This document shows positions 196 to 36,337 of a stretch of DNA of 36,337 bases, piece by piece. Within the stretch, counting starts at the first letter, position 1. The number at the start of each line of letters is the position of its first letter. The DNA lies in the IMG/VR virus record IMGVR_UViG_3300031224_000002; one strand, 5' to 3'. The position numbers and the translations under genes are program-made. Source of the stretch: a virus. Below the pieces are notes generated by a model. It worked only from the letters and a program-made list of their open reading frames with translations. It had not been told where the DNA came from and did not search any database.

Positions 196-2001
196 TTATG
201 CTTTGAATCCCGTGTTAGTTATAGCCGAGCCACCCGACAGCGTTATATCTGCTGCATCAAAGGCGTGTGTCTGATTGAGTATGCCTTGGATGTAAACTGT
301 CTGTGCCGATGGTGCGTCGATTGAGACGCCACCTGCACCCGTGATGATTCTAGGGTTATGGAGTTGAACGTTGCCCGTAACGGTAGCCCCGTAGGAGATG
401 CCCTTAGACGAGGCTGTGGTGTTTACAAATGCGCAATTGTTGGCGATGAATGTGCCAGACCAGCTTGCAGCAAACTCAACTACGTCTCCACCTGATTCGG
501 TGGATTCGATTCGGGAATTGTTTATGGTTAGCGAGCCTGAGCTAGTTAAGTAGATTGGAGGGAAAGAAGTTCCGTCGTGTGAGTTGTTGGCGTTGTTAAT
601 GGTCTGAGTTCCACCAAGGCATAGAATAAAAGTCCCAGCGTTACCCACCGTTTGTGTTCCACCATTGCATCGAATATAAGTCCCCGCGTTACCTGCTATT
701 TGAGTTCCGTTAGCGCATTCAATTACAGTTCCAGCGTTACCCGCTATTTGAGTTCCGTTAGCGCAATAAATATAAGTCCCAGCGTTACCTGCCGTCTGGG
801 TTCCGCCATCGCATTGAATATAAGAACCAACATCTCCCTTGCAGACCACATTTGCGCTTGCGTTACGGACTCTAAAATTCCCGCCAATATCGCCGTCAAT
901 CGTGAACGTAAATGCTCCTATGACATCAAAGCTTGGGCTAATTGCACCCTGCTCGATTGTCAAGTCCACACCATCTTTACCGCCTAATGCTGACTCTGCC
1001 GAATAGTCACCAGCAAATACGTGTATCGTGTCTCCGCTAGTTGCTGCTGCAAGTGCTGCTGTGCAAGTCAGAAATGGATTACCAAAATCATGAACGTCTA
1101 GTCCTGTCCGAGTGTCGGTTCCGCTCTTCGCTACAAATATCACGTTGGAGTAAATGATTTCTGACAGCACGCCTAAAGCCGTGGCCCAAGTCGCCGAGCT
1201 AAAATTGCCATTGGAATTAGGATTTGCCGCGAACTCGTCAAGCGCGTCCGGCAAGTCTGCCGCCGGAAATGCTGCCGCCGTCATGCCCGAAGAAGCGACG
1301 CGGCAAGGCACGCGTGCCAGCGCATCGCCGTCAACTGATACTTCTAAGATAAAATTGCCATATGGATCGTCTGCGACTGCTTGCGCGAGGCGTGCAGTGT
1401 TTGCGTCCAGCGTGCCGCTAAATCCGCTTGTGATTGTGGTCCATGAGCTAGTGTAGATCGCTGGCTGCCGTCGCACCTCGACGACTTGCTGCGCTCTTGT
1501 CGTGGCTGTGCCTGTGACTGATGCGCTCGGCGTGACTGTCGATTCAGGCGTGAGGTCAACTGAGTTTGCCGTCAACGTGGTTCTAGCCCCGACTGTTCGC
1601 CAAATTAAAGAATATAGCGAATCGCTGATTTTGTAAACATCAACGAGAGCGCCGTCCGGCCCGGTGCCAGCATTTAGCGCGTTTAAGTAGTCCTCGACTG
1701 CGCTGCCGCTTGCTCCATATGGAATCGCGCTCGTGACTGCCGCCCCTGCGTCAGTAATAGTAAACGAGCCGCTTGACGGCTTTGCGCCGGGCTTCGTGAT
1801 CGAGACTTTGACAGACGCCGCCCCTGATCCACTGAGCGAGTCATATGTGCCGTTGCTTTTGACGAGATACAGATTGATGTCTTGCGTCTCGCCTTCGACG
1901 ATTGTCCACATTGGGACGGGTTGCCGTGGTCGAGTTAGGCCCGCGACTACTGCGGTTTCGATGCTTCCTGCGTCGGTGTTAATAAATAGATCGCGGCTCA
2001 T
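196..2001 (-). CDS. Tail fibre/tailspike, beta-helix type
   Basis: A 601-aa ORF with ATG at 2001, located at the distal end of the tail module. It has a GDTIHVFAGDY motif like right-handed beta-helix (pectate-lyase-like) spikes. It also carries five tandem 16-aa C-x-GGTQ-x-GNAGT-x-I repeats. Confidence 0.7.
   Translation of the reverse strand: MSRDLFINTDAGSIETAVVAGLTRPRQPVPMWTIVEGETQDINLYLVKSNGTYDSLSGSGAASVKVSITKPGAKPSSGSFTITDAGAAVTSAIPYGASGSAVEDYLNALNAGTGPDGALVDVYKISDSLYSLIWRTVGARTTLTANSVDLTPESTVTPSASVTGTATTRAQQVVEVRRQPAIYTSSWTTITSGFSGTLDANTARLAQAVADDPYGNFILEVSVDGDALARVPCRVASSGMTAAAFPAADLPDALDEFAANPNSNGNFSSATWATALGVLSEIIYSNVIFVAKSGTDTRTGLDVHDFGNPFLTCTAALAAATSGDTIHVFAGDYSAESALGGKDGVDLTIEQGAISPSFDVIGAFTFTIDGDIGGNFRVRNASANVVCKGDVGSYIQCDGGTQTAGNAGTYIYCANGTQIAGNAGTVIECANGTQIAGNAGTYIRCNGGTQTVGNAGTFILCLGGTQTINNANNSHDGTSFPPIYLTSSGSLTINNSRIESTESGGDVVEFAASWSGTFIANNCAFVNTTASSKGISYGATVTGNVQLHNPRIITGAGGVSIDAPSAQTVYIQGILNQTHAFDAADITLSGGSAITNTGFKA
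583..822 (-). repeat. Five tandem 48-bp (16-aa) repeats inside the fibre gene
   Basis: Protein units: YIQCDGGTQTAGNAGT / YIYCANGTQIAGNAGT / VIECANGTQIAGNAGT / YIRCNGGTQTVGNAGT / FILCLGGTQTINNANN. The DNA units are visibly repeated (gttacc.gc...tgagttcc). Confidence 0.9.
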
Positions 2002-8696: not shown

Positions 8697-9012
8697 CGCG
8701 CTTAGTTTCGTTCTGCGCCGTCAATTCGACGTTGCCTGTTGACATATTGACTTCAGTAATGATGAAAATTTCGCTGGTATTGATTCGCGTTAGTCGCTGT
8801 GTCTTCTTCGGCGTGACGCTTAGTGCAAGATCCGGAATGACGAGCTTGACTGTCGGTTCAGAACGCTCGCCGTGCTCGGTCAAGTCCCAAGGGTTAATCT
8901 GCTCGTAAAAGATCGCGTTGACGGTCTGACCGCTTGCGAGCTGGATAGGCTCGCCCATGATGTCGGCTGCTTCGCTGTTCGCGTTTTCGAGGAAGGTTTC
9001 AAAGTTGCTCAT
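8689..9012 (-). CDS. Head-tail adaptor-position protein
   Basis: A 107-aa ORF and the first gene after the post-capsid terminator. It is preceded by the 25-nt shared leader. Confidence 0.5.
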   Translation of the reverse strand: MSNFETFLENANSEAADIMGEPIQLASGQTVNAIFYEQINPWDLTEHGERSEPTVKLVIPDLALSVTPKKTQRLTRINTSEIFIITEVNMSTGNVELTAQNETKRDG

Positions 9013-9035
9013 GTTGTATTAGGTTATTGGATACG
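9011..9035 (-). promoter_or_regulatory. 25-nt leader, copy 2 (identical to 157-181)
   Basis: Exact match to 157-181. It ends in the ATG of the 8689-9012 gene. Confidence 0.6.
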
Positions 9036-13503: not shown

Positions 13504-15288
13504 TTACTCAGACTCTCGCCCGACTTCTGACCAATCCACCATTGACTCGGCGAGCGCCACCATGACCTCGCAGTCATAGTAGTGATCGTCGCGATTCGTA
13601 TTGATCCAATCGTGGTAGGTCGAACCGTCTGGACGCGTCTTTACAATCTTCGCCCATGCGTTGATCTGAGCATCGTATTGCGCCCCGGCGTCGTCGGAGT
13701 GCGTCCAAAGCGGCAGGCCTTTGTTGTCTTTCAGGCCTCGAAGTAATGAGAGTTTATTTTTCGCCGATTGCTTCGAGAATTGAATCTGCTTGCAGAACCG
13801 CCGCCCGGCGTTGCCCGTTCCTTCGTCGGCGTCAATGCGCTGCGGCTGATTGTAGATTTGCCGTGATCCGTCAGGCGCTTTGAAATCCTTTGCGGGCTCG
13901 CCGCGCAAGACAATCCAGCCCATCTCGGCAGCGAGTCTTTGCACTTGTGCCGTGTTATAGTTGCCGTCGATAAAGACGCGGCAGCCGGGATAGCCCCACG
14001 GATTCTGAGGAATGTCAAAACGGTTGCACGCTTCCTCAATCTCGTATTCAGTCGATACTCTGCCGCGCTCGATTAAGCGCGATCTCAGCTTGCCGTCGAT
14101 CATTGCGAACTGACGAATCGCGAAATAATAGTGATCTTTTTGAACGTCCACCCCAACGAACATAAGCGACTTCTGCGCGTCCATCAGTTCGCCGAGCTGG
14201 TAGCCTCCCGCAGCTGAGTGTGAAATGTCCGCGCTCATGTAGTCGGCCTCACTCCAAGGCTCGGCCAGCCGCTTGCGGATAAAGTTCTCAAGTGGTTCGA
14301 GGTTGCCGCGCTTCCGGGAAATGTTTGCAAGTTTAAACTGCTCGACGAGCGACGGCCAAGGAATGTGCGCCATCGCATTGTAGTTAAAAAACTCAAATTC
14401 AGCCGAGCCTTTCGGGTTCGTGGCGATGTATTGCCCGGACTCATTGCGCCGCTTCTGCGCTGCGATGCCCGGCTCGTTGCGACCGCCGCAGAGTTGGCAC
14501 TCGTAGAAAACGGAATCCTTGAGCGCGTCCCAGTCGATCACATCCCCGTCCATGTAATCGGCTTTTGCCGCCCATCGCATACCGCCGACCGGGATCGCGT
14601 CACCAATTGCAGGCGCTCGCCAGATGTATGGAATCAACTCGCCGCAGTAGTCACATTTGACGTGCCAGCGCTTTTGCGTCGAGCGTTGCCACATAGCGTC
14701 AAGCTCGCCGCCCTTGGTCTGCCCGGACGAGGGAAGAAACATTTGCCATGACCAAGCGAACGAACTCGTCCGGTCTTTGATCTGGTCTAGCCAGTTTTCG
14801 CCATACGCCCATGACTCGTCTGCGCTCACTCGCTCCAATGTCTTCGAGTTTCGAGAAGCTAGAACATTAGCAGACAGCAGGCGAATCGCGCCGTAGTTCG
14901 TCGATGTATAAAATTTCGTTTTGCGGTAGAGTTGATTTGGAATCAATCGAGTGATCGCTTCGGTCGAATCAATCAGCGGCGTGAACTTGTCATCGCTGAA
15001 CTCTTTAAGTGCAGACTCGGTGAGGTCATACATTGCCGCCCGCGCCGGATCTGTTGCCAGTCCGTAGAGTTGCCAAAGTTGCGCGGTCAGAGTTTTGATG
15101 TGCTGCACCGATCCAATCAAGCCGACATATTTTCCGCGAGTCGTCGCGAGCGTTTCCATCGGCTCACGCATTAGCGGATGATTCGCCATATCGAATGCGC
15201 CGTAGTCAAGCGACGTATTTCGCTCACACCACTTGCGCGGGCTGATCGGTTTGTAGTCTACTAGTTTAATTTTACCTGTGCAATTCAT
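13504..15288 (-). CDS. terL: Terminase large subunit, GpA (lambda) type
   Basis: A 594-aa ORF. It has HPLMREPMETL..VGLIGSVQHIKT near the N-terminus and the Cys pairs VKCDYCGELIPYIW and FYECQLCGG, as I recall for the GpA family. Confidence 0.85.
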   Translation of the reverse strand: MNCTGKIKLVDYKPISPRKWCERNTSLDYGAFDMANHPLMREPMETLATTRGKYVGLIGSVQHIKTLTAQLWQLYGLATDPARAAMYDLTESALKEFSDDKFTPLIDSTEAITRLIPNQLYRKTKFYTSTNYGAIRLLSANVLASRNSKTLERVSADESWAYGENWLDQIKDRTSSFAWSWQMFLPSSGQTKGGELDAMWQRSTQKRWHVKCDYCGELIPYIWRAPAIGDAIPVGGMRWAAKADYMDGDVIDWDALKDSVFYECQLCGGRNEPGIAAQKRRNESGQYIATNPKGSAEFEFFNYNAMAHIPWPSLVEQFKLANISRKRGNLEPLENFIRKRLAEPWSEADYMSADISHSAAGGYQLGELMDAQKSLMFVGVDVQKDHYYFAIRQFAMIDGKLRSRLIERGRVSTEYEIEEACNRFDIPQNPWGYPGCRVFIDGNYNTAQVQRLAAEMGWIVLRGEPAKDFKAPDGSRQIYNQPQRIDADEGTGNAGRRFCKQIQFSKQSAKNKLSLLRGLKDNKGLPLWTHSDDAGAQYDAQINAWAKIVKTRPDGSTYHDWINTNRDDHYYDCEVMVALAESMVDWSEVGRESE

Positions 15289-15879: not shown

Positions 15880-16689
15880 TTATGTCACTTTTATTTCTGT
15901 GGTGTTCTCAAAATAGTTCTCGCCCTCGCTTATCATGCAATCAATCGCCCACTGAGGCAGGTTGACGTCGCTAGGCGATTTCGCGACGGCCTTCATTCCC
16001 TCAAATATTCGACCGCCCAGAACCATTGCGGGCAGCAGATTGTAAACGTCATTCGGCGTCTCGCAGTCAGCGATCACCTCGCAGACTTCTTTCAACTGCT
16101 TGCGCACGCAGGCGTTCCCGGCGTAGACAATCGCTTTGAGTATGCGCTCGACTTCCTTTTTTGTAAGCGTCTCGCCCTTCTGGATTCCTAGCTTCTTCTC
16201 ATCGAGCGCCGTCTCCCTTATTTGCTTGTCAATCTTGAGATAGGCATTTAGCGCAACCTTCTCCCGCTCGCTATTCCCGTTCGCCTTCGCTATCTGTAAC
16301 TCGGCCAAATACTCATCGCGCAACTCATCCGGGGATTTCGTGTCAGACTCGGCTTTATAAATCTCCGCCTTTATGTCGTTTTTCTTCTCGTAGGCCTTCA
16401 CCCACTTGACGCACATATTCTTTGCCTTAAGTCCCTCGTAGCAAAGCGCGTCATCTTGGTCGAACTTGACCCCCGCCTTTTTTGCCCGGTGGATCGTCGA
16501 ACGCTGGACTTTGAATTCATCCGCCAACTCCAGGTCGGTCTTGTCTGGGCGCATCCCATCTCTCTCCCGCTCGGCGTTGTCCAGAGTCTTAGTTTCCGCC
16601 GACGTCAGCGGCCTGCCCGCTTTGACCTTCGCAACGATGTTCGCGAGGTTCTTTTTACGGATCGCGTCGAATGGATTTTTATCAATCAT
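15880..16689 (-). CDS. Terminase small subunit candidate (HTH-containing)
   Basis: A 269-aa ORF with an HTH-like segment LADEFKVQRSTIHRAKKAG and a charged helical remainder. It lies upstream of terL, separated from it by two small genes. The assignment is positional. Confidence 0.45.
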   Translation of the reverse strand: MIDKNPFDAIRKKNLANIVAKVKAGRPLTSAETKTLDNAERERDGMRPDKTDLELADEFKVQRSTIHRAKKAGVKFDQDDALCYEGLKAKNMCVKWVKAYEKKNDIKAEIYKAESDTKSPDELRDEYLAELQIAKANGNSEREKVALNAYLKIDKQIRETALDEKKLGIQKGETLTKKEVERILKAIVYAGNACVRKQLKEVCEVIADCETPNDVYNLLPAMVLGGRIFEGMKAVAKSPSDVNLPQWAIDCMISEGENYFENTTEIKVT

Positions 16690-16775: not shown

Positions 16776-17579
16776 TTAGTCTTTTCCATTTGCCTTGATT
16801 AGCTTGTTGTTTTTAAACTTTCTAAAGTTGCAAGAATGCTGATACCTTCCCCAGCGTTTATTTATTTTACATACGTCTGGATGCTGGTCTCTTAGGCTTT
16901 TTGCCATCGCATAGCGCCCATCAAATTGTGAATCTTGCTGATAAAGCTGGTCTGTGTTTCCGCCTTTCATTGTCATCGTCGCCGACTTGTCGCAGAGCAG
17001 GCCATTAAATAACATAGTGCAATAGCCCTGCTTTAGAAATCTGATCGAAAGATCAGTGTCTTCATTATATCGGCCTCGCCACCTGGTCGAGACTTTGTTT
17101 GAAAGTAACATGCATGAGTAAACTCTGGTGTTCATCGTGACAGGCAGCTTGGCCGCTCCCTGTGCCGTCGATGAGTTAGTCACAGCAAAGCCCGTGTATT
17201 GCATCCCCGCCATCGGCACATTGACAAATCTAGAGACAAACTTTTCTATTAAGTCAAAGTTAGAGCGGTCCAGAACTGCCACTCGTTTTTTGTTTTTAAG
17301 GATGCGAAAGCCAGAAATATTATCGTCAAGAATCCAGTGTGAGGCGTGACCCTCTTGAATCGAGTGCTCCCACACCCAATTACGCGCCGGTATTCCACCA
17401 AGTCCAAGGTTTGAAAATGGCAAGGTTAGTATCTTTGACGGCTCAATGACAGAGGAGTAATCCGCAAATTCTTGCGGCTCTATCACAATGCGATAAGAAA
17501 CGCCCATAAGCTCCAGGGCTTTAGATGTGAGCCGCGATTCGTGCCGACCTTTTGAAATAATGTAAATTGGTGTAGTCAT
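16776..17579 (-). CDS. Glycosyltransferase-like protein (GT-A/TET-associated-GT-like candidate)
   Basis: A 267-aa ORF taken from the ATG at 17579; the track start at 17603 is a TTG. It has an N-terminal PIYIISKGR strand-loop and a WILDDN acidic motif, as in GT-A DxD enzymes. The resemblance to the TAGT family is from memory only. Confidence 0.45.
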   Translation of the reverse strand: MTTPIYIISKGRHESRLTSKALELMGVSYRIVIEPQEFADYSSVIEPSKILTLPFSNLGLGGIPARNWVWEHSIQEGHASHWILDDNISGFRILKNKKRVAVLDRSNFDLIEKFVSRFVNVPMAGMQYTGFAVTNSSTAQGAAKLPVTMNTRVYSCMLLSNKVSTRWRGRYNEDTDLSIRFLKQGYCTMLFNGLLCDKSATMTMKGGNTDQLYQQDSQFDGRYAMAKSLRDQHPDVCKINKRWGRYQHSCNFRKFKNNKLIKANGKD

Positions 17580-18169
17580 TATGGCTTGGAGGGATACCAG
17601 CAAAACTTAACGTTGTCGGTAATTTTAATGTCAAGCGCCTTCGCGAAACTTGCGCGGCTTTCAGGGTTTGTAAAATGAACTATGATGGTTCCATAACCTT
17701 CCGGAGATCCATCATAGTCGGGCATTTTAGAATTACTCCACTCTTTACTAAGATCAGCCTCTTCGGTCGCAAGGATCGCATCAATCCTCGCTTGGTCAAA
17801 ACCGAGCAAGCTAATGTCAAAATCTTCCGCCTCCAGTTTGGCAATCTCAGCAGCCAGCATTTCCTCGTCCCACTCGATGCCGTAGTCTGCCAGCTTGTTG
17901 TCAGCGATCACGTAAGCGGCCTTCTCGGTTTCGCTGAGTCCGTCGATCACGATGCAAGGGATTTCCTTGAGACCCATTTGCACGGCAGCAACTGAGCGGC
18001 CATGCCCAGCAAGTATCATCCCCGCTTCGTCGATCAGCACTGGGGCGGTAAAACCGAAGCGTTTGATGCTCGCAACAATCTTGTCGATCTGGTCTGCGCT
18101 GTGCTTTTTGGCGTTTCCCGCGTATGGTATCAACGTATCTGTTTTGATTGATATTATTTTATGTTGCAT
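17579..18169 (-). CDS. ParB-like N-terminal (nuclease/NTP-binding) domain protein
   Basis: A 196-aa ORF with a ParB/Srx-type core: LIPYAGNAKKH...RFGFTAPVLIDEAGMILAGHGRSVAA. Its stop overlaps the next ATG (TAATG). Confidence 0.8.
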   Translation of the reverse strand: MQHKIISIKTDTLIPYAGNAKKHSADQIDKIVASIKRFGFTAPVLIDEAGMILAGHGRSVAAVQMGLKEIPCIVIDGLSETEKAAYVIADNKLADYGIEWDEEMLAAEIAKLEAEDFDISLLGFDQARIDAILATEEADLSKEWSNSKMPDYDGSPEGYGTIIVHFTNPESRASFAKALDIKITDNVKFCWYPSKP

Positions 18170-18228
18170 AGTTTTGTTGATTTTGATTTGCGTATAAAAA
18201 TACGACTAGGCGCTAAACCCAAGATCGT

Positions 18229-18468
18229 CTATGGTGAAAAAGATTCCTTGCCAGCCCCCCTCGCCCTCGCCAGCCCCCCCCCTCGCCAGCCCCCCCTCGC
18301 CAGCCCCCCCCTCGCCAGAGAATCCACCGCCTCGACCATCACAGCGGTTTTGCTGATGCCGTTGGCCGTCGCCAGTCCGTCAAGTTGTTTGATTGTCTCG
18401 TGCGGTAGCCGGAGCGATATCATGCGCCGCTTCTCGGTGATTCGTTTCTGTGATGCTTTTGTTTCCAT
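18229..18468 (-). CDS. Ribbon-helix-helix (CopG/Arc-like) DNA-binding protein with a repeat-encoded tail
   Basis: Taken from the ATG at 18468: METKASQKRITEKRRMISLRLPHETIKQLDGLATANGISKTAVMVEAVDSL, which reads as strand, helix, helix. This is followed by LARGGLARGGWRGGGLARARGAG encoded by the G-tract array. The track start at 18555 is a TTG that spans the operators. Confidence 0.7.
   Translation of the reverse strand: METKASQKRITEKRRMISLRLPHETIKQLDGLATANGISKTAVMVEAVDSLARGGLARGGWRGGGLARARGAGKESFSP
18251..18318 (-). repeat. Tandem CTGGCGA-Gn array (G8, G7, G9, G3, G6 on the minus strand)
   Basis: Counted on the plus strand: ccag-C6-tcgccc-tcgccag-C9-tcgccag-C7-tcgccag-C8-tcgccag. The unit lengths are 16, 14 and 15 nt. 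Confidence 0.95.
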
Positions 18469-18476
18469 GTCGTTGA

Positions 18477-18544
18477 TCAATACGTTGAGTGTGAGATTGT
18501 CAATACTCTGTATTAATACGTTGAGCGTTGAGTCAATACGTTGA
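18477..18544 (-). promoter_or_regulatory. Operator/promoter cluster of the RHH gene
   Basis: On the minus strand there are three boxes: TCAACGTATTGA (18544-18533), TCAACGTATTAA (18524-18513) and TCAACGTATTGA (18488-18477). GTATTGACA sits between them, with TTGACA at 18503-18498. The ATG at 18468 lies only about 9 nt from the last box. Confidence 0.6.
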
Positions 18545-18577
18545 CATGAGATCAAGTCTCATAAATACGTTTTTTCA

Positions 18578-18712
18578 TTTATACAGCTTCAAAAAATGAT
18601 CTATACACCCTCTACATCTATTATATTTATACAGCTTATACATCTTCCTATAGATAAGAGACTTATAGAACTACTAAAAAGGAAGCTGTATAAGCTGTAT
18701 AGTTGTAGAGGG
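18578..18712. other. AT-rich iteron/inverted-repeat region (replication origin candidate)
   Basis: The 10-mer TATACAGCTT occurs at 18580-18589 and 18628-18637, and inverted as AAGCTGTATA at 18683-18692 and 18692-18701. A 20-bp inverted repeat (18629-18648 and 18681-18700, 1 mismatch, 32-nt spacer) is flanked by CCCTCTACA (18608-18616) and TGTAGAGGG (18704-18712). Confidence 0.45.
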
Positions 18713-20847: not shown

Positions 20848-21189
20848 TTAGTCTTTTACCTCAAAGTGAATCTCCAGTCTCGGCCGCTCACGATCAATCT
20901 CGAATCGAACGCCATCAAAGCCCCACTCGCTGTCGTCTTGCTGACAGCAATCAGCGACGCCGTCGAGATACGCCTTGCAGCTTGCCGAGGCGTTGTCGCG
21001 GTCATGTCTCCGCGTGTCTTTCCACAAGAAGACGAGCCGATAGCTTGCGAACTTCTGAATGCCGACCTGCCTGAACGTCTCGCGCTTCGCCATAGCCCGC
21101 GCGAGCTTCTTAGCCTTTGCGAGCTTGGCCCAATGCACGCGAGCGTTCGGTGACAGCGTTCGGTCTGGTAGCGGGAGGGTTATGGTCAT
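20848..21189 (-). CDS. rusA: RusA-like Holliday junction resolvase
   Basis: A 113-aa ORF with LPLPDRTLSPNARVHW at the N-terminus and RRHDRDNASASCKAYLDGVAD acidic motifs, typical of RusA. Confidence 0.75.
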   Translation of the reverse strand: MTITLPLPDRTLSPNARVHWAKLAKAKKLARAMAKRETFRQVGIQKFASYRLVFLWKDTRRHDRDNASASCKAYLDGVADCCQQDDSEWGFDGVRFEIDRERPRLEIHFEVKD

Positions 21190-21887
21190 AGTTCTTCGTT
21201 CCCCCTCGCTCGCTTCGCATCTGTGGCGTTCGCCTCAAGGCTCAAAGTCGTCTGGCTAGTCTCACGTTCCACTCTTTCGCATCCAGCTTTGAAGTAGTCC
21301 TTGTCTAACTCTGAGCCTGTGAGGTGTATTCCAGCGTAATGTGCTGAGATTGCGCTACTCATTGAGCCTAGATGCGTATCTAAGACCTTCATGCCCTTCT
21401 CTGCGTAGTTGGCGAAAATCCAGTCGTATAGCTTTACGGGCTTCTGAGTTGGGTGGATTTTTTTATCATAACCCGCACTAAAATGGTGCATGCTAAAACG
21501 TCTAGCTGGCTTATCAAAGCTAGACCATGCTAATTCAAAATCTGACATGTCGTTAGTCCCATTCATTTTATCCCAGCTTAATAGGCTTTTAGTGTTACTT
21601 AAAAAATCAAAAAAATAGTTAGCACCCCATATTATTTGATGATTGCTAACCCTGAAAAGTTCTTTAAAATAAATTTCGTTTGGGGTTTCTCTATCCCAGT
21701 TCTTGTGTTTGTCTTTGGTTAGGCTACCAAATCCACTTTGCTTATTTATATTTATCCCATAAGGCGGATCAACCACGCAAATATCGTAGTAGTTATCAGG
21801 GGTTTGTTTGAGTAGCTCCATGCAATCGCAGTTATATAGCGCGAGTGAATCCGTCTTGTGTGGTGTTCCTAGGTTTTTATAGTTCAT
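21186..21887 (-). CDS. DNA methyltransferase (N6A/N4C, beta-class), paralog 2
   Basis: A 233-aa ORF. It has DPPYGI (motif IV) near the N-terminus, and HPTQKPVKLY...VLDTHLGSMSSAISA (AdoMet motif I) near the C-terminus. The 5' half is conspicuously AT-rich. Confidence 0.9.
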   Translation of the reverse strand: MNYKNLGTPHKTDSLALYNCDCMELLKQTPDNYYDICVVDPPYGININKQSGFGSLTKDKHKNWDRETPNEIYFKELFRVSNHQIIWGANYFFDFLSNTKSLLSWDKMNGTNDMSDFELAWSSFDKPARRFSMHHFSAGYDKKIHPTQKPVKLYDWIFANYAEKGMKVLDTHLGSMSSAISAHYAGIHLTGSELDKDYFKAGCERVERETSQTTLSLEANATDAKRARGNEEL

Positions 21888-21910: not shown

Positions 21911-22666
21911 TCATGATTTTCGCTGGTCGGTATCTATGCTAAGGACGTTCGCCTCAAGATTCAAAGTCGTTTGGCTAGTCTCACGTTCTATCCGTTTACA
22001 AGCCGCTAGGAAGTAGTCCTCATCGAGTTCGCAAGCTGTCAGGTGCATCCCCGCGTAATGAGCCGCTATCGCTATGCTTCCGCTTCCCATGTGGGTGTCT
22101 AATACCTTCATCCCATTCTCGGCGTAGTTTTCGAAGATCCAGTCGTATAATTTGACGGGCTTTTGGGTGGGGTGGATGCGTGATTCTTTATTTTTCATAT
22201 CACCCTGCCTCATACCCATCCATGCGAAAGTGAACATCCTCAAAGCTCTGTTGAATGAAGTGTAGGCAAGCTCACCATCTGAGAAATCTCCAGACGCTTC
22301 TTTATTCCAGAATATCCACCCCATACTACTTTGGAAGTGTTGAGGGTAATAGTTCGCGCCCCAAACAATTTGATTTTTTGATACTCGCTGCAGCTCTTTG
22401 AAATATTCACTAGTCGGCGCTGACCCGTCCCAGTCTTTAACTGTATAATCTCCAGCCATTGCGCAAGTCCCCATCCCTCTGCTTTTCTTGCCTTCACCTA
22501 TCCCATAAGGCGGATCAACAACCGCAAGGTCAAAGTGATTGTCTGGATAACTTGCCATCAACTCCATGCAATCCATCCTCTTTAAATCCAAGAAAGGAGA
22601 ACAAGGCGATGATGCCAAGCCCGTTGGGGCTGGTGGCGGAATCGGGGCTGTAGGGCGGGCTGGCAT
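21911..22666 (-). CDS. DNA methyltransferase (N6A/N4C, beta-class), paralog 1
   Basis: A 251-aa ORF with DPPYGI, HPTQKPVKLYDWIFENYAENGMKVLDTHMGSGSIAIAA and a Pro-rich N-terminal extension. Confidence 0.9.
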   Translation of the reverse strand: MPARPTAPIPPPAPTGLASSPCSPFLDLKRMDCMELMASYPDNHFDLAVVDPPYGIGEGKKSRGMGTCAMAGDYTVKDWDGSAPTSEYFKELQRVSKNQIVWGANYYPQHFQSSMGWIFWNKEASGDFSDGELAYTSFNRALRMFTFAWMGMRQGDMKNKESRIHPTQKPVKLYDWIFENYAENGMKVLDTHMGSGSIAIAAHYAGMHLTACELDEDYFLAACKRIERETSQTTLNLEANVLSIDTDQRKS

Positions 22667-24188: not shown

Positions 24189-24394
24189 ATTTGTTGTCGT
24201 TTGGGGTTCCGCGAAAGCTGCACTAAAACTTTTTCAATGCGCTCAAGCTCTTCATCCGACAGCGTTTTTACCGCCCCAAACTTCCAGTTTCTAAATCGCA
24301 TGTAATCGACCTCTGCCTCTAGGCAGACGCCCTTTGCGTTTAGGAGGGGCAGCCTTTCGGCTAGCCCCTCAGATGTTAGTTTAATCCGTGACAT
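24185..24394 (-). CDS. Hypothetical protein (69 aa)
   Basis: The ORF has its ATG at 24394. Its first 20 codons have a degraded paralogous copy at 24982-25043. Confidence 0.6.
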   Translation of the reverse strand: MSRIKLTSEGLAERLPLLNAKGVCLEAEVDYMRFRNWKFGAVKTLSDEELERIEKVLVQLSRNPKRQQI

Positions 24395-24655: not shown

Positions 24656-24931
24656 TTATTTCGCACTTTCAAGAAGATCCTCGATTTCGGATTCATTGAG
24701 CATATTTAGCCCGCCGCTTGAAGCGTTAGCGTGATAGTATTCATCAGATATATAGCATTCTGGGTCGCTCAAGTCCCATCCGGTCATATTACCACCATCC
24801 AAGATAGATTGTAGTGTTTCGGCGTCGGCATAGCTCTTATCTCCAAAATTGGCAACCGCCTTTGTTTGGGTGTTCTGGATTGTCAGTCCGCCAGCATTGT
24901 CTGCAATTACTTCGATATTTTTGTGGATCAT
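24656..24931 (-). CDS. Hypothetical acidic protein (91 aa)
   Basis: I placed the start at MIHKNIEV (ATG at 24931) because the 62-bp leader repeat ends in ATGATCCAC in both copies. The longer track ORF would read through the repeat. Confidence 0.6.
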   Translation of the reverse strand: MIHKNIEVIADNAGGLTIQNTQTKAVANFGDKSYADAETLQSILDGGNMTGWDLSDPECYISDEYYHANASSGGLNMLNESEIEDLLESAK

Positions 24932-24984
24932 TTTTATATTTCTCTTTTTCGTTTTTTTGTCGTTGGGTTTGTCCCTCTGATCTA
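24923..24984 (-). repeat. 62-bp leader repeat, copy 1
   Basis: It matches 25360-25421 with 4 mismatches. Minus-sense sequence: TAGATCAGAGGGACAA.CCCAACGACAA..AA.AACGAAAA.GAGAAATATAAAAATGATCCAC. Confidence 0.9.
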
Positions 24985-25043
24985 TTTTGCGTTCAAGAGG
25001 GGTAGACTTGCGGCTAGCCCCCCGTTGTGAGTTTAGCGGGCAT
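24982..25043 (-). pseudogene. Frameshifted, truncated 5' remnant of a paralog of the 24185-24394 gene
   Basis: The ATG at 25043 gives MPAKLTTGG* . Adding one G to the G6 run gives MPAKLTTGGLAASLPLLNAK*, compared with MSRIKLTSEGLAERLPLLNAKG in the intact gene. The remnant is cut off by the leader repeat. Confidence 0.45.
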
Positions 25044-25044
25044 T

Positions 25045-25368
25045 TTATTGATTGTAGCATTTGAGTTCTTTTCTTACGTCGAAATCGTCCGACTCAACTT
25101 GATACGATTGGTTATAATCGTTCTGGATTACCATGTTTCCAATTTGATGAATCATAACGTGCCAATTTTCGGCAGTCTCCGAATACAGCTTGTCGCCGTG
25201 CTCCTGAAAGAAATCATCCTCGTCGATATAATCGCGGTCGCCGTCCTCATCGATCACATACAAGGCAAATAGCTTGTCCGCTTTTTTGATTTCCCAGTCA
25301 ATCAATACGCCCTCGTCTTCACATACTGATTCAAATTTTGATTGGTCTAGTTTTGGTGTGTGGATCAT
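25045..25368 (-). CDS. Hypothetical acidic protein (107 aa)
   Basis: The ATG at 25368 is preceded by copy 2 of the 62-bp leader. The protein is very Asp/Glu-rich. Confidence 0.6.
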   Translation of the reverse strand: MIHTPKLDQSKFESVCEDEGVLIDWEIKKADKLFALYVIDEDGDRDYIDEDDFFQEHGDKLYSETAENWHVMIHQIGNMVIQNDYNQSYQVESDDFDVRKELKCYNQ

Positions 25369-25421
25369 TTTTATATTTCTCGTTTTCGTTGTGTTGTCGT
25401 TGGGCTTGTCCCTCTGATCTA
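25360..25421 (-). repeat. 62-bp leader repeat, copy 2
   Basis: See copy 1 (24923-24984). This copy starts just downstream of a TTGACG-N16-TAGGGT promoter-like element. Confidence 0.9.
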
Positions 25422-36104: not shown

Positions 36105-36337
36105 CTAGTAAAGCGCGACGATGGACGTTGCAGTGGTTCCGGTCGCATTGACGCGAGCCGTTTGCACTGGCAGAATCGAGCCGGCAGTGACGCCGACAAA
36201 TACGACTGATTCGCCAGCCGCTTCGCCCGTCAGATCGTCAATTGAAATGTCGCCTGCCGCGCCGACGTAAAGAGCGCGGCACGTGCCGAGTGCTAAATCA
36301 GTGGAGTCGTTCGGAGTGACTGCGCGAGTTGCGCCGC
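36105..36337 (-). CDS. 3' part of the 86-aa spike-base-like gene (same gene as 1-155, seen through the overlap)
   Basis: The reading frame from the ATG at 155 continues through position 36211 (equivalent to nt 1) to the TAG at 36107-36105. Confidence 0.6.
   Translation of the reverse strand, partial: GATRAVTPNDSTDLALGTCRALYVGAAGDISIDDLTGEAAGESVVFVGVTAGSILPVQTARVNATGTTATSIVALY
36211..36337. repeat. Terminal self-overlap, copy 2 (identical to 1-127)
   Basis: See copy 1. Confidence 0.97.

Follow-up and report, generated by a model that had tools for sequence, protein, structure and literature searches.

Members of the lambda group of phages have 12-nt 5' extensions and a cohesive-end site (cos) made up of cosQ, cosN and cosB, the first of which is required for cutting the downstream cos when packaging ends (PMC4669245). 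Between lambda and phage 21, packaging specificity is swapped with the cosB side and the DNA-binding end of TerS (PMC4669245), and the terminases of herpesviruses, which bear on the pac1 element discussed below, are homologous to those of phages (PMC13595911, PMC4669245). Two other systems are close in sequence character: the poly-G loci of Campylobacter, examples of simple sequence repeat (SSR) contingency loci (PMC6321876), and the mitochondrial CSB II (conserved sequence block II), whose non-template G tracts end transcription through a hybrid quadruplex, with tract length acting as a rheostat (PMC4176368, PMC5027508). Here, these systems are compared with an array of long G tracts in the viral genome IMGVR_UViG_3300031224_000002 of IMG/VR (36,337 nt, the whole stretch analysed, hereafter called the window), where the array forms the 3' end of a gene for a ribbon-helix-helix (RHH)-like regulator. 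We propose, with a probability of roughly 0.6, that this array is a lineage-specific tandem amplification (from 1 unit through 2.5 to 4.5) of a cos subsite conserved in this phage family, of which a single tract would aid the recognition or cutting of cos, the extra copies being neutral or modulatory. The initial annotation of this DNA missed the cos context: the array lies 31 nt from a putative cohesive end and is probably an amplification of a conserved cos subsite. The features needed for the argument, in window coordinates, are these:

18229..18468, minus strand: ribbon-helix-helix-like regulator gene, 79 aa; fold encoded to about 18310, stop TAG at 18231-18229
18318-18304, minus strand: array unit CTGGCGA-G8
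18303-18290, minus strand: array unit CTGGCGA-G7
18289-18274, minus strand: array unit CTGGCGA-G9
18273-18264, minus strand: array unit CTGGCGA-GGG
18263-18255, minus strand: array unit CGA-G6
18254-18250, minus strand: partial array unit CTGG(C)
18304-18311, 18290-18296, 18274-18282 and 18255-18260, plus strand: C runs of the array
18238..18249, minus strand: cosQ-like box AAGGAATCTTTT, abutting the array directly, its first base exactly 30 nt before the nick
18220..18237, minus strand: box-to-nick spacer TCACCATAGACGATCTTG; on this strand, G18220 would be the final base of the virion DNA at its right end
18208..18219, minus strand: putative 12-nt 5' cohesive end (cosN) GGTTTAGCGCCT, placed from contig ends
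18204..18205, minus strand: module junction; after ...GCGCCTAGT (...CCTAGT) contig L020 diverges completely

Read on the minus strand, 18318-18251 is CTGGCGA-G8-CTGGCGA-G7-CTGGCGA-G9-CTGGCGA-GGG-CGA-G6-CTGG, in exact agreement with the initial annotation, and the ATG of the ParB-like gene that follows (18169) lies 81 nt beyond the array end, where about 80 nt had been given. Tandem Repeats Finder describes the array as 3.7 copies of a 14-nt period (92% matches, score 94). It holds four of the five C runs of at least 6 nt on the plus strand of the window, and that strand has no G run of at least 6 nt. Tract lengths identical to those of the window are found in contigs L004, L005, L006 and L023, and contigs of four other samples (MEGAHIT k141 and Logan assemblies) match the window at 100% identity along up to 10.2 kb; the window-type contigs (n=5) represent one clone and are uninformative on long-term stability.

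The evidence for a cohesive end comes from the places where contigs stop. Eight contigs reaching the site from the left, obtained from eight samples (JGI, MEGAHIT k141), stop at one base, ...GATCTTGGGTTTAGCGCCT, ending in GGTTTAGCGCCT. At least three right-side contigs carrying the downstream gene (L043, L044 and L045, with four similar ones) start with GGTTTAGCGCCTAGTCG..., the first 12 nt of which are GGTTTAGCGCCT. The two sets overlap by 12 nt and not by k-1, and since MEGAHIT used k=141 this overlap is not a graph artefact; it has the size that 12-nt 5' cohesive ends leave once filled in. For the eight ...GCGCCT ends, branching of the graph at the module junction was considered as the cause and rejected, because these ends fall 3 nt before the divergence and the overlap is 12 nt, not k-1; it is accepted as the cause for the Logan pair L006/L024, with its 30-nt (k-1) overlap. 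Independent support for the cut site is given by L054, from another lineage, whose contig ends exactly after its own 12-mer. Other contigs, as well as the circular window, read across the cos site, which fits replicating or annealed DNA. All these termini are taken from contig ends. At the contig end of L002/L018 the 12-mer is GGTTTAGTGTCT, T replacing C at positions 8 and 10.

The site lies directly upstream of a TerS-like gene and a TerL gene of the gpA type, the window having a ParB-like gene and one for a TET-associated-type glycosyltransferase (TAGT) inserted between; in L020, L047 and L056, cos and the TerS/TerL genes are adjacent. Beyond the module junction, L020 has neither ParB nor TAGT and leads straight to a TerS-like gene with a different N-terminus. 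Thus, as between lambda and phage 21, the cosQ/cosN side is identical and the cosB side is swapped together with the TerS N-terminus. The TerS-like genes of L020 (721-1416) and of the window (15880-16689) are 100% identical in DNA over their C-terminal 83 aa, their N-terminal halves being unrelated. In L003, L008, L030 and L032, cos is followed by a fusion of ParB with an N6/N4 methyltransferase (L003 2301-3497). The segment directly after cos is a swappable block of DNA-modification cargo, of which ParB-like plus TAGT (16776-18169) is the window version.

In common with lambda cos, the window site has a gpA-family TerL and a lambda-family portal, a location just upstream of TerS-TerL, a 12-nt overlap of the ends, and a short conserved element that precedes the nick by a fixed distance, in the place of cosQ. 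The 12-nt ends, seen indirectly through contig ends, the position relative to TerS and the gpA-type TerL, and the cosQ-like element point to a lambda-type cos. Two differences stand beside these likenesses. The putative end GGTTTAGCGCCT shares only 5 of its 12 bases with the lambda end, GGGCGGCGACCT; the window site would work like lambda cos, but it is no member of the lambda-like cohesive-end group. In addition, its 12-nt box is accompanied by a G/C homopolymer, which is amplified here and translated in a gene; we know of no homopolymer subsite described for lambda cos. A limited literature search found no phage cos site with a candidate subsite of this kind, or with one that had been amplified and translated. 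The array falls within the terminal ~100 bp of the chromosome's right end, to the cosQ side of the cut; the RHH gene, which overlaps this subsite, is the last gene before that end, which, by analogy with lambda, is probably the last part to be packaged.

The combination of homopolymer and box extends to distant relatives. The nearest cultured phage, Verrucomicrobia phage P8625 (NC_029047, L046), was found via its TerL, 58% identical to that of the window, and its positions 558-640 align with the window cos region. The box AAGGAATCTTTT is identical, and its first base lies 30 nt before the boundary between TTG and GGT, as in the window. Beside the box there is one further feature:

561-564 of P8625: C4 run, the homopolymer by the box

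The GenBank record of this phage starts elsewhere than cos, the predicted cut falling by homology between TTG and GGTGATATGACT, at about 597-609; termini are not reported in its genome paper.

When IMG/VR was scanned with the pattern AAGGAATCTTTT-N15-TTGGGT, 17 loci were returned, in which the invariance of the box and the 30-nt spacing follow by construction from the pattern itself; independent evidence for the box comes from P8625 and from the packaging genes that follow it in the scanned loci. Where TerS-like and TerL genes were found, they begin 45-320 nt downstream of the box, and in most loci the portal is also downstream; L051 and L054 have none of the queried genes near the box, the L054 contig stopping at the site itself. 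Of the 15 distinct sequences, 11 have a run of 4-7 G or C that ends 2-4 nt upstream of the box. In the same loci such runs have a background frequency of 0.7%, which gives a naive binomial of 2e-21, for sequences that are related. The base of the run depends on the lineage, being C4, C6 or C7 in some and G6 or G7 in others, and in half of the lineages the run is C on the same strand. The flanks upstream of the box do not align among the 15 sequences, TerL is only 53-67% identical between lineages, and in relatives the same tract occurs outside genes of the RHH kind. The signature of this P8625-like family is thus a G/C run, N2-4, AAGGAATCTTTT, N15 and TTG, followed by the cut and GGT.

Closer to the window, the element forms an allelic series. 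A search for the RHH product among 5.8 billion proteins returned three clusters only. In the type A allele (16 distinct contigs, 5 haplotypes), ...GATTCT is followed by ATGGCGA-G7-CT and then AAGGAATC; its protein stops at TAA after ...DSMARGG, the final R-G-G-stop codons being the G7 tract itself. Type B, present in L020 only, has 2.5 units, ATGTCGA-G9-CTGGCGA-GGG-CCA-GGG-CTGGC followed by AAGGAATC, and encodes the tail SRGGAGEGQGWQGIFFTLDDLGFSA. Type C, that of the window clone, has 4.5 units and the tail LARGGLARGGWRGGG..., its last 2.5 units corresponding to type B. The G7 of type A is the homopolymer subsite of the family, and the window array is this subsite with ~7 nt of flank copied 4.5 times. 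No other site in the last 520 bp varies nearly as much as the array. The haplotype nearest to the window, L029, still has a single unit, and the expansion is therefore recent. In the distant relative L009 (primase 67% identical), the RHH homologue ends in EAIDGKAEG, without a G tract. A two-unit pattern gave no match in an IMG/VR scan; a one-junction pattern gave four matches, in unrelated phages, which were judged to be due to chance.

In contrast with the copy number of the unit, which varies by lineage, the lengths of the homopolymers are constant: G7 in all 16 single-unit contigs, and G8/G7/G9/G3/G6 in all five of the window type. The three alleles give three unrelated tails, with two downstream frames and three stops. 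The RHH open reading frame (ORF) of the window runs through the array, its last ~24 codons consisting of array plus spacer. An AlphaFold2 model of the product, built on a shallow 4-sequence alignment, has helices at residues 23-36 and 40-52 and a predicted local distance difference test (pLDDT) score below 50 from residue 56 onwards. Its tail thus begins where the fold stops, as the initial annotation had proposed. The two other frames close within ~45 nt (about 50 nt had been stated), and simulated gains or losses of 1 or 2 G, or the loss of one unit, all keep residues 1-52 or more and give proteins of 74-87 aa, so the claim that slippage would exchange tails and spare the fold also holds. 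Taking into account both the unrelated tails, frames and stops of the alleles and this indifference of the fold, the earlier view of the tail as a by-product of a repeat acting at the DNA level is upheld.

Two further observations concern the ends of related contigs. In L020 (1489-1806), the RHH ORF spans the cohesive-end site, its stop TAG being formed by the last base of the 12-mer and the next two; because it crosses the site, this ORF is intact only on circular or concatemeric DNA. L042 and six similar contigs start with ACCCTAGT followed by AAGGAATCTTTTT..., so that 8 nt unlike any RHH 3' end precede the cos box; this start might represent a fourth allele, or else a duplication of 22 nt or an artefact, and a search for sequence upstream of these contigs gave no match.

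On the gene strand the layout is a G/C run of 4-7, 2-4 nt, AAGGAATCTTTT, 18 nt, the nick, GGTTTAGCGCCT, the TerS-like gene and TerL. In the window clone, slipped-strand duplication of a 14-16-nt unit, GGCGA-Gn-CT, would have removed the TAA stop of the RHH gene. Duplicating GGCGA-G7-CT within ATGGCGA-G7-CTAAGG would give the observed CTGGCGA junctions, and the TAA, which spans the 2-nt spacer and the two opening bases of the box, disappears since ...CTGGC, at the new end of the array, runs directly into AAGG. This loss would have added ~24 unconstrained, disordered residues to the RHH protein. The single tract would assist terminase, as packaging ends, in recognising or cutting the downstream cos, presumably as a property of duplex DNA, because G or C appear to serve equally across lineages. 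The extra copies would be neutral or at most modulatory, and not a device dedicated to quadruplex formation or phase variation.

Several findings weigh against this proposal. None of the window-type contigs ends at cos, and the role of the homopolymer in packaging is suggested by its conservation alone. Some loci of the scan depart from the signature: L052 has no homopolymer and none of the queried genes nearby, and may be a chance match; L049/L055 lack the homopolymer, with a distant TerL downstream; and L058/L059 have GGG only. Both expanded alleles carry their proximal G run 5 nt from the box instead of 2-4 nt, and may differ functionally from the tract of the family. Moreover, the Logan contigs L005/L006 end, and L024 starts, with a 30-nt (k-1) overlap at window 18223-18252, from GGCAAGG, in two samples. 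In these breaks a second graph path enters within the last unit of the array, which could reflect real heterogeneity or Illumina error after G runs, and heterogeneity of the tracts within the population could be hidden by consensus contigs.

The first alternative is that the array is simply junk, a neutral microsatellite expansion from a homopolymer that sits by the cos box without any packaging role. The recent expansion is limited to one sub-lineage, relatives do without it, and the loci just mentioned, with no homopolymer of at least 4 (L049/L055, L052) or with GGG only (L058/L059), fit such an explanation. It is nevertheless unlikely, because a G/C homopolymer is kept at a fixed offset across lineages whose TerL is 53-67% identical and whose flanks are unrelated, in 11/15 sequences where 0.7% is the background.

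A second alternative gives the G strand a role in transcription. According to it, G tracts on the non-template strand and in the mRNA would form a G-quadruplex, a hybrid quadruplex or an R-loop during transcription, and the resulting attenuator would limit read-through from the regulator gene past cos to ParB/TAGT and the packaging genes, tract number and length serving as a rheostat. The precedent is CSB II (PMC4176368, PMC5027508), with which the array shares non-template G tracts whose length or number varies by lineage; the genome is transcribed one way, with the G tracts on its non-template strand. The window allele is a strong motif: it contains four or more G runs, each 3 nt or longer, joined by loops of up to 7 nt, the formal pattern that the initial annotation had recognised, and this is the only canonical G3+N1-7 quadruplex motif of the window. 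G4Hunter peaks here at 2.72, against 1.68 at the second-best site, and ViennaRNA gives -80.7 kcal/mol with quadruplexes versus -48.4 without them. However, the pattern is marginal in the 2.5-unit allele and is not matched by the single-unit one, where the G7 of the 16 contigs allows no intramolecular quadruplex. A hairpin of the intrinsic-terminator kind was also considered: on the minus strand, GGATTCT (18319..18325) and GGAATCT (18247-18241) form an imperfect inverted repeat with the tract or the array in its loop. In the single-unit allele this hairpin is followed by a U run (dG -14 kcal/mol, z -2.4, U4-5) and weakly suggests a terminator, but in the window allele its signal (z 0.07) does not exceed what composition predicts, and no terminator-like site was found at the array in a scan of the gene strand. 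Unlike CSB II, the locus offers no evidence of termination, and what is conserved in the wider family is indifferent to strand, the run being C on the same strand in half of the lineages, so that a structure specific to the G strand is not the conserved function; in L009 there is no G tract. For these reasons a quadruplex, which the initial annotation had raised, is not supported as the reason for the element, whose common allele has a single G7 and which in wider relatives is a run of C or G, and an attenuator based on a quadruplex, hybrid quadruplex or R-loop is improbable.

Even less probable is a phase-variable contingency locus, in which slippage in G7-G9 would switch between three C-terminal tails and so alter the oligomerisation or stability of the regulator. 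As in SSR contingency loci (PMC6321876), tracts of G7-G9 lie inside an ORF and slippage shifts the frame; all three frames yield proteins of 74-87 aa, the copy number of the unit differs between lineages, and in two samples the Logan assembly has a branch point just within the final array unit. In contrast with those loci, the fold is kept in every frame, no simulated variant losing the RHH fold as on/off switching would require, and there is no length polymorphism in 21 contigs. No frame-shifted tail variant was present in the search of 5.8 billion proteins, the tails are unconserved and predicted to be disordered, and in relatives the same tract lies outside genes of the RHH kind. At the consensus level there is no sign of rapid homopolymer switching, and the phase variation by slippage that had been suggested finds no support at that level. 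Finally, homopolymers and GGC motifs are prone to error in Illumina reads and two Logan assemblies break at the array, but its identical recovery by three assemblers from five samples settles the earlier question of assembler error and leaves practically no room for a sequencing or assembly artefact. A Chi-like recombination signal was also tried as a candidate and rejected: 7- and 8-mers derived from the unit show no excess over a Markov expectation in the rest of the window, and their strand bias is ordinary for a one-strand genome.

The amplification of a cos subsite, the reading preferred here, invites comparison with herpesvirus pac1. In pac1, G-rich tracts able to form quadruplexes flank a T-rich element, and cleavage takes place a set distance away. 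Both sites thus have a G/C tract beside a T-rich element, with a short and constant distance to a terminase cut, at a genome terminus. The termini of herpes simplex virus 1 (HSV-1) carry nearby G-rich tandem repeats. The window site differs in having one flanking tract only, which may be C on the same strand: judged against pac1 as described in a statement of a review (PMC13595911), the G/C run is on one side of AAGGAATCTTTT only. The resemblance is taken as a lead and not as membership. That the homopolymer and box could be the phage counterpart of pac1, a structural cue that makes terminase stop and cut, is a tentative idea by analogy, and a doubtful one. If it were true, the window array would be a quadruplex-capable, telomere-like element in the terminal ~100 bp of the chromosome, the G strand pointing to the end in the 5' to 3' direction, and it could tune the termination of packaging, the ejection of DNA or the protection of the end.

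Should the tract be a working part of cos, it would add a previously undescribed subsite to the cosQ-cosN-cosB scheme, echoing the logic of pac1. There is a natural allelic series for testing such a subsite (1, 2.5 and 4.5 copies; G or C), and P8625 is in culture. For metagenomic genomes of this group, the cos site, the 12-nt ends and the family signature offer a means of fixing orientation and termini, and they account for the frequent contig breaks seen here. The finding itself moves from an odd tail of a regulator to a variable element at a chromosome end, which, if the tract had no role, would be a tolerated microsatellite.

As to the regulator, its assignment is supported by matches of differing strength: Pfam RHH_1 at E=1.3e-3 (19 bits against a cut-off of 20.5), transcriptional regulators of PHROG at E=2e-5, and RelB/BrnA-like models of NCBIfam below threshold. 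The AlphaFold2 monomer contains two helices, and the strand expected for RHH is modelled as a helix. Between the primase stop and the RHH gene there are two sets of repeats:

18476-18571, next to the RHH start on its upstream side: TCAACGTATTGA-type direct repeats, four copies
18476-18712 region, between the primase stop and the RHH gene: nested TATACAGCTT inverted repeats, 22 nt at 95% and 30 nt at 80%

These repeats are kept in all haplotypes and are plausible operators or an origin. A search of Rfam gave sub-threshold plant miRNA noise alone, at the inverted repeat upstream of the RHH gene.

With regard to the genome as a whole, positions 1-127 of the window are identical to 36211-36337, an exact 127-nt terminal overlap that corresponds to a circular assembly with a unit of 36,210 bp. 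All long ORFs are on the minus strand. Megablast found no close phage relatives of the window at the DNA level, and a search of 185,579 genomes by flank pattern and TerL gave no host or prophage match; the only hint of a host is that the nearest cultured phage is Verrucomicrobia phage P8625. The neighbours of the RHH gene are a primase/helicase upstream and, downstream, the ParB-like protein, the glycosyltransferase, a 269-aa protein, TerL, the portal, which in the window is of the lambda family, and a ClpP-like protease. Those discussed above are located as follows:

17579..18169, minus strand: ParB-like gene, the first gene after cos
16776-17603, minus strand: TET-associated-type glycosyltransferase (TAGT; PF20691, E=8e-39)
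15880..16689, minus strand: TerS-like gene, 269 aa; assignment from position only, all homologues being situated between the cos box and TerL
13504..15288, minus strand: large terminase of the lambda gpA family (Pfam GpA_ATPase E=3e-25, GpA_nuclease E=1e-11)

The TerS-like protein had no match in Pfam, PHROG, NCBIfam or PDB, and neither TET nor JBP was found among the window ORFs scanned.

Other parts of the window also carry duplications. Two paralogous N6/N4 DNA methyltransferase genes stand in tandem (21186-21887 and 21911-22666), with shared blocks of 75-83% nucleotide identity, and some relatives have a single copy. Inside the 601-aa ORF 196..2001, a 48-nt tandem repeat (605-824; 4.6 copies, 77% matches) would encode a 16-residue protein repeat, possibly of a tail fibre. 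Dispersed intergenic repeats, which may be promoters or terminators, comprise an exact 25-nt pair (157-181 and 9011-9035), a 63-nt pair at 94% (24922-24984 and 25359-25421) and a pair of GC hairpins (24333-24368 and 24986-25021).

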